This document shows, piece by piece, positions 39,001 through 42,000 of a stretch of 64,000 bases of DNA (position 1 is its first letter; each line of letters starts with the position of its first letter). The position numbers are program-made. The stretch is from an uncultured Solibacteraceae bacterium (GTDB lineage Bacteria; Acidobacteriota; Terriglobia; 20CM-2-55-15). The stretch spans positions 126,038 through 190,037 of the forward strand of contig CAZWGA010000001.1 of NCBI GenBank assembly GCA_964633285.1, given 5' to 3'.

Positions 39001-42000
39001 GCATATTTCCCGGTCTGAAAGCTTTTTTTCAGTGTCACAACCCGGTCGTCATTGACGGGTTCTGTCAAATCGACCACGTTAAAAACCAGCGGGGAATGAA
39101 AGCCGGTCCAGAGAAAGGTTCCACGTTTAAGCCGATGGTAGATGTGTCCTGAAACATCCGCGGCAACAAAAACAAAGACAAAAATCAGGACCGTAAAGAC
39201 GGATTTCTTCCATAACGGAAGGTTCAAACGACGGCTTGGCACGCGAGTATATTCTCAGAATTTTCCGGCTTTTCCTGACAAGAATCGTCGGTGGCCTTTA
39301 CGACGAACCAGCCGGACGTAAATTTCTTTGTAACAATAAATTAGGCTCGAGGATTCCGAAAAAACGTCGGAAGTGTTTACACATTCCAAAAACCAGCTCT
39401 TCTCTGCAAAAGCCCTTGACATCAAGAATCTAAATGAGATACTCGGGCGACGTGACAAAGGTATGATGGTTGCAAGCTTCCGGAGGCGAGGATAAAGCAT
39501 GATGCGAAGACTATCATTGACGATGACAATACTGGCGCTGACGTTTTTGTTGTTTGGCGCTTTGACCTTAAACGCAGCAGATGCATTGCTTTTGAGAACA
39601 TCGAGACTGGGGTTTAACGATGCCGCAGTCTGGGGTGGCGACTGTCAGGTACCGCATGCGAGCATCAATAGCACGAGTACCAATCTTAGGACCGTAACAG
39701 CCAGCGGTCAAAATGGCACGATTGAACAGGGACTCAATACGACATCGTTCGGTACCGATCCCTGCAACAGCATGTGGATCGGTAATTTTGCAGACGGTGA
39801 TCACCTTCTCTGGGCTAATGACAGTTCGAATTTCGATCAATTCGGCAATCCGATAACCTCGGGTCACGGCCCGCTCGAACTCGCACTGGATTCCAGCGTT
39901 CGAGGAATCGGAACACAAATTCAGTCGGATTGGTATGGAGGGTTCACGGCCCGACTGGAAGTCTTCAATGGGGCGAATTCCCTGGGGTTCGTCACAGAGG
40001 ACGGAGTCTCGGACGCTAACACGGGCACCGCTATTTTCATCGGCGTCTGGGATCTGAGTGGTGAAAACATCACGCGAGCCGTTCTGAGCCTGGATACTTG
40101 TCCCGAGTCGTGCAACGACTTCGCGATCAACCAGGTGTCACTCCTTGAAGGTCCGATACGTGAAAACGTGCCCGAACCGGCATCATTGATCCTCCTCGGT
40201 TCAGGACTTGCGGGTTTGGTTTCTCTCAAAATCAGAGCCCGGAACAAGTAGGCATATCTCTAAACGAAACGAGAGGGCGAAGCTGGTCTTCGCCCTCTTT
40301 CCGCTTTTCATTTAGGAGCACTGTCAACGCACGACGCCTTGACGGCGCGCCTTTCCGCAGATCCTGATGTCCGAACCCATCCAGTGCGACGCTACGCGCA
40401 TCCAAATGGCCTTAATAAGAACCCTGGCGTAACCGGCTCCCTCTTTCGAAAACAGAAACTTGGATTCGCCGGCCATGCGGCGTCCCTGTCGTCCTCGTAG
40501 TTCGCAAATCCGGCTTCCTGTGAACCAGGCCTTGAATGTCGTTTCCGGTGAGATCTCGAATCCATCGGATTCCAGCTTCAGGGAGCGAATCCAATCCATT
40601 CGAAAACCCCGGAATGCGTAGCTGATGTCTTTCACGTCGACGCCTGCCACCCAGCGGCTCAGAAGGCGGTACCAGAAATGATAAAACCGGTATGAAGCTG
40701 GGATATTCGTTGAATCCTCCGGCGCGAGGTACCTCGATAACAAAACGAGATCGAAGCCTTCCTCGATTGTCTTCTGCCGGAAATCCGGTATTGCTGCCAG
40801 CGGGTCCACGCAATCACCCATCACGATCGTGCCCATCGCGCCGCGCGCGTGTGCGATCCCATACTTGATCGCAGCGCCGATTCCTCGCGGGAGGCCTTTG
40901 TGAAGGGCGCGAACCATGGGATGCCGGTGTTCGAGCATCAATGCTTCACGGAACGTGTAGTCGTCGCTGCAGTCGTCAACAATGAGAATCTCGGCGGACA
41001 ATTGATATTGCCGGATCAGATCCTCCAGCTTCATTACCAGGATCGGTATGTTCTGTTCTTCGTTAAGACAGGGAATGATGATGCTGATTTCAGGATCCAT
41101 CTGAAAGTTTGCGCTATTGGGTAGCTACGGCGAATCGCCGCATCAGGATACCCGCAACCGTCACGGGAGCTTCAAACAAAACTCCTGCGCGAAGCTCGTT
41201 CCGTTCGAGTGAGATCAATTGGTACTGCGTGTCAGATTCCGTCTCCACGACGTTTTGTTTTTCGATCAAATAAAGACAGTGGGGCTGCACTTCACCTTCA
41301 GAAGGAATTCGAATGTGATTCTTGTTTACGAATTCGGCAACGAGCGCGGCGGCGCGTCCTTCTTCGGCGAAGTAAGCACTGCTGAAGAGTGAGACGCACG
41401 CGAATAACAGACATCCCAATAACACTACAGTTGTTGTATACGCGAGTCTTGTTTTTGAATCGGTCGATGGCATCAGTGAATCCGCCACGAAGGCCGCGAT
41501 CGGCGGAAGGATGAAGACCATATAACGCAGAGAAGGTCTGCTGAAAGTGTGGAAAGCAAAAAAGGAAGTAATCCAGGTCATATGGATGTATCGCTCGCGC
41601 CAGTTTTCTTTGCACCACACAAAGAGAGCAATGACGGCGATACCCCCGATAAAGAGAAGAAACGTATTTGCAACCCACAACGCCGGCTTACCCGTGACGA
41701 AGTGACGGATCCATCCGAGTCGCATTTCGGAAAGATCCGGATTTTCTGCGCTGTCGTTCACGACAAGATAGGCGCCGGCACACGCTGCGACGAACAGTGA
41801 TATTCCGCCGTAGATCCGTTTCTGGAATTGAAAACGATGCAAGACACACCATATCGGAACGAAAATAAATGGGCCGCTGAACAAGCCCATCCAAACGAAA
41901 TACGCAGCCAGCCGTGGTGGGATATGACGCAGATTATTCCAGGCGGGGAATAGACCCAGGTGGTTTGCCTGCTCCTGAGAAATCACGTGACCCAGCGTTG

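Follow-up and report, generated by a model that had tools for sequence, protein, structure and literature searches.

Introduction

The PEP-CTERM sorting system, the sigma-54 box upstream of its target genes, the dependence on RpoN and the scattered single-gene arrangement are already published (PMC1569441, PMC9850573, PMC3333781). Haft et al. 2006 (PMC1569441, section 7) reported the PEP-CTERM box in Proteobacteria only, and found most PEP-CTERM genes to be single-gene operons with more than 200 nucleotides (nt) upstream. Motif 1 of the box is 17 nt long, ends in TTTACA and is sometimes repeated. Motif 2 is a sigma-54 element (-24 GG / -12 GC) located 23-221 nt from the start codon, with a mean of 71, and the spacer between the two motifs measures 62.8 +/- 10.6 nt (range 32-92). 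Motif 1 co-occurs with PrsR, the system includes PrsK, PrsR and PrsT, and EpsH was detected per genome (PMC1569441). The RpoN dependence of a PEP-CTERM gene was shown experimentally in Aquincola (PMC9850573). Here, we analyze a PEP-CTERM gene in a stretch of 64,000 nt (the window) from an uncultured Solibacteraceae bacterium of the Acidobacteriota (assembly GCA_964633285.1, contig CAZWGA010000001.1, positions 126,038 to 190,037). All coordinates count from the first letter of the window. The gene (39499-40251, plus strand) appears to form a single-gene unit of an ordinary kind that encodes a secreted surface protein with a PEP-CTERM tail and a sugar-binding-like character. The overall reading we favor, and consider moderately probable, is that this protein is processed by an exosortase, binds polysaccharide and is expressed from a PEP-CTERM box with a PrsR-type activator and sigma-54.

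A putative enhancer motif paired with a sigma-54-type site

The open reading frame (ORF), the sorting domain, the fold prediction and the motif matches with their statistics were observed or computed here. The PEP-CTERM gene is preceded by 256 nt of non-coding DNA. A promoter-like site in this region, aGGtatgatggTTGCa at 39459-39474, has the exact GG-N10-GC spacing and a perfect TTGCA. As a candidate sigma-54 promoter on the plus strand (AGGTATGATGGTTGCA, -26 to -11), the site has its GG at 39460-61 and its GC at 39472-73, with a predicted start near 39485. Further upstream lies the main enhancer site, CGTCGGAAGTGTTTACA (39365-39381, plus strand), the putative motif 1 of a PEP-CTERM box and the predicted site of a PrsR-type activator. 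This is the only exact match to YGTCRR-N5-YTTACA in the window. With an enhancer matrix built from 7 non-window copies only, the site scores 15.9 bits and is the best of about 128,000 window positions. The spacer to the candidate -24 element is 76-77 nt. The sigma-54 reading is strengthened because the intergenic region holds a 17-nt enhancer motif at a permitted distance from a -24/-12 element. The second-best position of the enhancer matrix, 33233, was set aside as it is located in coding sequence and is not followed by a sigma-54 site.

The protein belongs to a family of PEP-CTERM proteins with a beta-sandwich domain, whose upstream regions can be compared. We fetched 80 metagenome loci encoding family members, fixed the start codons and reduced the set to 52 non-redundant 250-nt upstream regions, including three earlier-fetched loci. 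The reverse strand and coding sequence served as controls. The 17-mer YGTCRR-N5-YTTACA is a TGT...ACA quasi-palindrome situated 50-98 nt upstream of the sigma-54 sites in strong loci. It occurs 7 times in the forward upstream regions and in neither control (0 on the reverse strand, 0 in coding sequence). Across 87 loci, all exact matches are on the strand of the PEP-CTERM gene. Sites scoring at least 10.9 with a consensus matrix for sigma-54 number 10 in forward upstream regions, 1 on the reverse strand and 2 in the coding control, and the corresponding counts for a score of at least 12 are 7, 0 and 1. Sigma-54-type sites are thus found upstream of about 15-20% of the 52 family members versus about 3% in controls, and sigma-54 control appears to recur in roughly that share of the beta-sandwich PEP-CTERM family. 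Strong family sites, such as TGGCAAAGCGTTTGCT, TGGTACGCTACTTGCT and TGGCCTTGTTTTTGCT, begin 45-76 nt before the start codon, and the window site begins 40 nt before it. The T at -23 of the window site is also found in strong family sites. A consistent sigma-54 site was not apparent upstream of the first four homologues.

Three orthologous loci (L032, L039 and L044) have strong sigma-54 sites that read TGGTACG or TGGAACG, N4 and TTGCT about 60-80 nt before the gene start. In all three, a block reading CCCGTAC precedes the TGG by about 16 nt and YGTCRR-N5-YTTACA is missing, which hints at a different activator or accessory site.

The pairing of the two elements was assessed as a composite, defined as a motif 1 of at least 12 bits, a spacer of 35-105 nt and a sigma-54 site of at least 10 bits. 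The 962 kb scanned contain 7 composites versus 0.1 in block shuffles (about 70-fold), a count that includes the window itself and L001, a database copy of the same region. All seven are on the gene strand. The only composite in the window is the one formed by 39365-39381 and 39459-39474, and the spacers of the other composites range over 50-98 nt. The composite of locus L086 reads TGTCAGCTTTCTTTACA, 65 nt, then TGGCATGCCCCTTGCT. It was not used in matrix building and provides an independent example of the box. This composite follows a family member and precedes a second PEP-CTERM gene (934-1736, 217 amino acids (aa)), which has an unrelated N-terminal domain.

The intergenic region contains two additional sites resembling motif 1. 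The distal enhancer-like copy, CGTCGGTGGCCTTTACG (39286-39302, plus strand), is located 79 nt upstream of the main copy and has one mismatch and 7.8 bits. The third site, TGTCAAGGGCTTTTGCA (39405-39421, minus strand), is inverted, has one mismatch and 11.2-11.8 bits, and ranks 7th in the window. If one mismatch is allowed, 3 of the 8 matches in the window fall within the 256-nt intergenic region. The direct repeat CGTCGG-N5-TTTAC has its copies 79 nt apart, with the distal copy pairing with 39359-39380 over 22 nt. A 22-nt direct repeat by itself is expected in about 1 in 5 regions of such size (binomial estimate), and the repeat carries weight only in combination with the family evidence. Enhancer copies are 77 nt apart in locus L027 (990-1254) and 79 nt apart in the window (39286-39381). 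About 7.5 helical turns may be a preferred spacing between activator sites.

Weighing the candidate sigma-54 promoter

On its own merits, the sigma-54 site is marginal. A consensus-style matrix, with frequencies modelled on the published consensus and a maximum of 20.5 bits, gives the site 10.9 bits and rank 4 among about 128,000 window positions. Among the top four positions, only 39459-39474 is intergenic. The chance of an equally good sigma-54 site in a 256-nt intergenic region is about 0.01-0.04.

A series of points weighs against sigma-54 control of the gene. The -24 element reads AGGTAT and is a poor match to the consensus TGGCAC. The literal pattern GG-N8-TTGCA occurs 10 times in the window versus 9.25 +/- 3.25 times in shuffles, which is chance frequency. 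With a second matrix, based on 18 known E. coli promoters (Table 1 of PMC2831329) and leave-one-out scoring, the site reaches 8.5 bits and falls below 16 of the 18 known promoters. Fifteen of these score at least 13.9 bits, and 22 window positions score at least as high as 39459-39474. The -11 position is 24 nt from the ATG versus a published minimum of 23, leaving a leader of about 14 nt that includes the GAGGA of the ribosome-binding region. A near-consensus sigma-70-type promoter is located between the enhancer and the sigma-54 site. None of the relatives found by word-based search is a close orthologue suited to promoter comparison, and the 64-kb window encodes no PrsK, PrsR or PrsT. Furthermore, the motif definition is partly circular, as the motif was first seen by eye jointly in the window and other loci, with the window copies excluded from the scoring matrix. 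The comparison with the published motif 1 was made by its text description and not by its logo. Circularity and the text-only comparison limit the strength of the enhancer evidence without removing it.

The sequence-only reading had proposed a candidate sigma-54 promoter at this position. The exact spacing and the perfect TTGCA stand and are joined by the upstream enhancer motif, whereas the AGGTAT half and the chance frequency of the literal pattern leave the promoter match by itself marginal. The pattern TGGCAC-N5-TTGCW with at most one mismatch is absent from the window, inspection of the intergenic region by eye showed no promoter of the extracytoplasmic function (ECF) type, and the predicted folding of the leader RNA is unremarkable (z = -0.36). 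The window has no Rfam or tRNA matches. A perfect -24 half, TGGCACG, is present at the start of the divergent SGNH gene (39237-39252, plus strand) with TATAT in place of TTGC. Lacking the -12 GC, this site is probably not a promoter.

The simplest interpretation is a standard PEP-CTERM box in which a spacer separates activator sites from a sigma-54 promoter whose -24 half is degenerate. Judging from motifs and their distribution, transcription that depends on sigma-54 and the box, with or without a sigma-70 contribution, is rather probable.

Competing readings of the promoter region

Transcription could alternatively start from sigma-70 only. The sigma-70-type promoter-like site at 39416-39443 (plus strand) consists of a perfect -35 TTGACA, 16 nt and the extended -10 TGaGATACT. 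It agrees with 10 of 12 consensus positions and has a predicted start near 39450, which would provide a normal leader of about 49 nt. Sites of such quality occur three times in the whole window. Two of the three are intergenic and correctly placed, hence canonical sigma-70 promoters seem to be used by the organism. The sigma-54-like element and the repeats would then reflect chance or another use, such as control of the divergent SGNH hydrolase gene. The weak -24 element and the majority of family members being devoid of a sigma-54-type site fit this explanation as well. Such an account has to contend with the position of the window's best enhancer-matrix match, which is on the correct strand and precedes the sigma-54-like site by 77 nt. 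It also has to contend with composites at about 70 times the frequency in shuffles, all on the PEP-CTERM gene strand. In addition, the TGTCAA half of the inverted site at 39405-39421 is the sigma-70-type -35 TTGACA read on the other strand. As TTGACA is the reverse complement of this half-site, the third enhancer-like site may account for the -35 match; equally, the match may be part of a genuine second promoter. Overall, we consider transcription from sigma-70 only unlikely.

The sequence cATCAAgaatcTA at 39420-39432 (plus strand) resembles by eye the integration host factor consensus WATCAANNNNTTR. It lies midway between the main enhancer and the sigma-54 element and overlaps the sigma-70-type -35 region.

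Both promoters might also be in use. Sigma-70 would provide basal transcription, and sigma-54 polymerase sitting at +9 to +25 of the sigma-70 transcript would act as a roadblock until the activator fires, creating a switch. Each element is rare in the window (top 3-4 by its own matrix), and the two are 16 nt apart. Tandem sigma-70 and sigma-54 promoters have a precedent in p1 and p2 of E. coli glnA. The -35 hexamer is possibly only a part of the third enhancer-like site, however, and we regard joint use of this kind as improbable too.

The window encodes a single sigma-54 activator, a protein of 322 aa at 45733-46701 (plus strand). Its start is 5.5 kb downstream of the PEP-CTERM stop codon. 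The ORF begins at position 1 of the Sigma54_activat (AAA+) domain (PF00158, 220.6 bits, residues 1-168). The protein lacks a receiver domain because the AAA+ domain begins at residue 1, in agreement with the earlier description of a receiver-less activator at this distance. The presence of a sigma-54 activator gene implies that the genome has rpoN. The product reached no NCBIfam equivalog cut-off, with 258.9 bits versus 502.6 for TIGR02915 (PrsR) and 231 bits versus 443 for TIGR02974 (PspF). A Fis-type helix-turn-helix domain (HTH_8) was not found at E <= 0.001 in the Pfam scan, and the loop reads GAFTTA in place of GAFTGA. The gene is divergent from an ECF sigma factor gene (45179-45697, minus strand), with 35 bp between them, and stands alongside HlyD-like (44378-45130, minus strand) and FecR-like (43065-44315, plus strand) genes. 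The cluster at 43065-46701 may be an envelope-signaling module with an atypical activator.

That this local protein, under partner control as PspF is by PspA, activates the sigma-54-dependent PEP-CTERM gene in place of PrsK/PrsR is very doubtful: it is the sole candidate nearby, lacks a receiver domain as PspF does and neighbors a module possibly sensing the envelope, but the enhancer motif is of the type co-occurring with PrsR (PMC1569441), its PrsR-model score is no better than those of the NifA, NorR or AtoC models, no HTH_8 match was seen at the threshold above, and GAFTTA replaces the sigma-54-contacting GAFTGA loop. PrsR is the likelier candidate for the PEP-CTERM gene. The link between the local activator and the gene, hinted at earlier, is not supported in view of the PrsR-type motif, the GAFTTA loop and the lack of a detected Fis-type DNA-binding domain.

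A broader combined proposal is similarly hard to credit as a whole. In it, a strong sigma-70 promoter is followed after 16 nt by a degenerate sigma-54 promoter, and the sigma-70 -35 hexamer also serves as a half-site for the activator. Binding of the activator, possibly the local GAFTTA protein in place of PrsR, would turn on sigma-54 transcription at the expense of sigma-70. The beta-sandwich domain would define an unnamed family of very large size (over 1000 clusters at 50% identity), whose small PEP-CTERM members would cross-link the matrix by binding polysaccharide.

The PEP-CTERM protein and its family

Direct reading and translation of 39499-40251 (plus strand) yield a product of 250 aa, with the stop codon included in the interval. 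The C-terminus reads ...ENVPEPASLILLGSGLAGLVSLKIRARNK up to the stop. Both PEP-CTERM models match the final 27 residues, VPEPASLILLGSGLAGLVSLKIRARNK, above their curated cut-offs. PF07589 (Pfam) scores 25.2 bits versus a cut-off of 20.7, and TIGR02595 scores 21.2 bits versus 16, both over residues 224-247 of 250. The sorting signal (40168-40248, plus strand) is composed of VPEP, the hydrophobic helix ASLILLGSGLAGLVSL and KIRARNK, and the model shows a helix at residues 228-249. The N-terminus, MMRRLSLTMTILALTFLLFGALTLNAADA, resembles a Sec signal peptide, with a basic MMRR, a hydrophobic core and AADA. The predicted signal peptide spans residues 1 to about 29 (39499-39585, plus strand). AlphaFold places a helix at residues 2-25, and the position of the signal peptide is conserved in family alignments. 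The sequence-only reading of a 250-aa product with a signal peptide and a C-terminal sorting signal is confirmed by the exact ORF and the two curated cut-offs. A database copy of the protein (P0001) is 100% identical and has its start called at the ninth codon. We consider 39499 or 39502 the better start codon because the ninth-codon start loses the basic start found in all relatives.

The ribosome-binding region GGAGGCGAGGA (39482-39492, plus strand) contains GAGGA at 39488-92, 6 nt before the ATG. Downstream, a GC-rich hairpin (40272-40298) is located between the convergent PEP-CTERM and glycosyltransferase family 2 (GT2) genes. It was called as a minus-strand terminator, and on the plus strand the stem is followed by TTCCGCTTTTC. 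The hairpin is likely a two-way terminator. The PEP-CTERM gene is read as a single-gene unit because of this hairpin ahead of the convergent GT2 gene and the 256 nt of non-coding DNA upstream.

Residues 30-216 (39586-40146, plus strand) are predicted to fold into a beta-sandwich (jelly-roll) domain with the fold of carbohydrate-binding modules (CBMs). No Pfam or NCBIfam model matches this domain of roughly 190 aa above cut-off, and Foldseek with the model of the protein found nothing at E < 0.001. The domain shares its beta-sandwich fold with CBM22, CBM4, CBM6, CBM61 and pectate-lyase modules at 6-13% identity and without membership in their sequence families. In contrast to CBM modules attached to enzymes, the domain stands alone with a sorting tail.

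Word-based search recovered only 17 relatives of the product. A profile search of 1.84 billion cluster representatives recovered 5659 relatives at E <= 0.001, of which 1052 reach E <= 1e-30. Almost all have lengths of 220-250 aa and share the architecture of the window protein. In a scan of representative genomes, the sole relative is 33% identical and encoded in a Fimbriimonadaceae genome. Gene order around homologues is not conserved. Five longer proteins of 679-1851 aa (P0018, P0019, P0022, P0028 and P0104) contain the beta-sandwich domain 2-4 times or as one module. The domain is therefore a mobile module that extends beyond small PEP-CTERM proteins.

There is a weak match of the product to the PepA model NF033554 (17.4 bits, E = 0.003), and its span, residues 74-244, extends beyond the tail. 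Weak matches to this model (E <= 0.01) were found for 19 of 26 family members. Orthology with PepA was rejected, as 17.4 bits is far under the cut-off of 80. The product is probably a polysaccharide-binding matrix protein related in kind to PepA, without being orthologous.

Genomic neighborhood

Pfam scans covered about 62 ORFs of the window and one cut ORF in the 3.9 kb further upstream (L002). The upstream 3.9 kb were recovered from a Logan contig; the Logan contigs stem from SRR12313479 and measure 4.7 and 10.2 kb. The exosortase family PF09721 has no match among these ORFs, upholding the earlier statement that no exosortase gene lies in the window and extending it to the 3.9 kb beyond. Such an absence in 64 kb is ordinary, since most PEP-CTERM genes are single-gene operons and EpsH was detected per genome (PMC1569441).

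Judged by Pfam and NCBIfam matches, a large exopolysaccharide locus occupies 1-39 kb. It encodes many glycosyltransferases and aminotransferases, an asparagine-synthase-like amidotransferase, two initiating sugar transferases, two full-length Wzc-like kinases, Wza, a Wzy_C protein, a carbamoyltransferase and SGNH hydrolases. The exopolysaccharide genes fall under the cut-offs of the XrtA-associated NCBIfam families and so give no ground for labelling the locus exosortase-associated. The two Wzc-like genes (19278-21647, minus strand, and 24011-26383, plus strand) encode about 790 aa each, combine a chain-length determinant with a tyrosine kinase and flank the Wza and Wzy_C genes. The two initiating sugar transferases are encoded separately at 16705 and 26400. 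The doubling of Wzc-like proteins and initiating transferases points to two pathways for polysaccharide or to duplication of the export module. Immediately upstream of the PEP-CTERM gene, 34509-39242 (minus strand) encodes a carbamoyltransferase (36394-38265), a DUF5989 protein (35818-36300) and two SGNH/GDSL-like proteins (34509-35816 and 38175-39242). This region is probably a cassette decorating the polysaccharide by O-carbamoylation or acylation.

The order downstream of the PEP-CTERM gene is a GT2 and GT-C (PMT_2) pair, the FecR-like gene, the HlyD-like gene, the ECF sigma factor gene, the activator gene and housekeeping genes, with a ClpB-like gene at 59364-61808. The GT2 gene (40324-41100, minus strand) encodes a polyprenyl-phosphate sugar synthase-like protein and is followed by the gene for a 552-aa GT-C (PMT_2-like) membrane protein (41114-42772, minus strand). 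The pair converges on the PEP-CTERM gene, an arrangement also seen on Logan contig L001. GT2 and GT-C genes are the usual two-gene layout for periplasmic-side glycosylation, and the target of the pair might be the PEP-CTERM protein or the polysaccharide. The last 2.2 kb of the window (61809-64000) contain two short ORFs only (62224-62610 and 63121-63651, both minus strand). Neither has a Pfam match, and no RNA family or tRNA was matched in 61809-64000.

Discussion

The locus is consistent with a scenario in which regulation and sorting follow the known PEP-CTERM scheme. From the sequence features, we infer exosortase processing, polysaccharide binding, the identity of the activator and that the sigma-54 promoter is in fact used. 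A PrsR-type sigma-54 activator would bind the quasi-palindromic CGTCGG-N5-TTTAC(A/G) at 39365-39381 and 39286-39302, and perhaps also the inverted copy at 39405-39421. The activator would then fire sigma-54 polymerase at the weak -24/-12 element (39459-39474), placing the transcription start near 39485, 14 nt ahead of the ATG. Some basal transcription might come from the sigma-70-type promoter (39416-39443). If the protein is handled like others of the PEP-CTERM/exosortase system, its tail would be recognized and cleaved at the inner membrane by an exosortase whose gene lies elsewhere in the genome. After cleavage, the protein would reach the cell surface or the layer of exopolysaccharide, and its beta-sandwich would probably bind polysaccharide there.

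Modestly new are the explicit enhancer consensus, the nesting of sigma-70 and sigma-54 elements and the very large unnamed beta-sandwich family with a CBM fold. A weak -24/-12 match that would fail a genome-wide matrix scan can be rescued via its partner enhancer motif. The explicit working consensus YGTCRR-N5-YTTACA can be used to map PEP-CTERM regulons in metagenome-derived genomes. Naming the beta-sandwich family would improve the annotation of biofilm and floc matrix proteins.

Several described systems resemble the locus. The Desulfovibrio vulgaris DVUA0057 regulon (PMC3333781) has a sigma-54-dependent response regulator, predicted to be of PrsR type, with PEP-CTERM targets and a position in an exopolysaccharide operon. 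A DNA-affinity chip was used to test the DVUA0057 activator, which has a receiver domain, whereas the PrsR-type activator expected for the window is a prediction. The RpoN-dependent floc proteins encoded by pepA of Aquincola tertiaricarbonis RN12 and Zoogloea resiniphila (PMC9850573) are small secreted PEP-CTERM proteins encoded beside exopolysaccharide genes, as is the window protein. The pepA genes have a -24/-12 promoter with an upstream enhancer, and the same layout is read from the sequence of the window. The Aquincola promoter has the consensus TGGCAC, whereas the window has AGGTAT. The closest correspondence is with the PEP-CTERM box itself (PMC1569441). The window differs from the published box by the degenerate AGGTAT at -24, a promoter at the minimum start-codon distance, a sigma-70-type promoter within the spacer and the absence of PrsK, PrsR, PrsT and an exosortase from the 64 kb. 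The window shares the single-gene unit, the 256 nt upstream and the exopolysaccharide neighbors. It also shares a 17-nt motif ending in TTTACA in more than one copy (by description), a spacer of 76-77 nt within the range of 32-92 and a candidate GG/GC element. Apart from the enhancer consensus and the unnamed family, the locus is a routine example of the system described in 2006.

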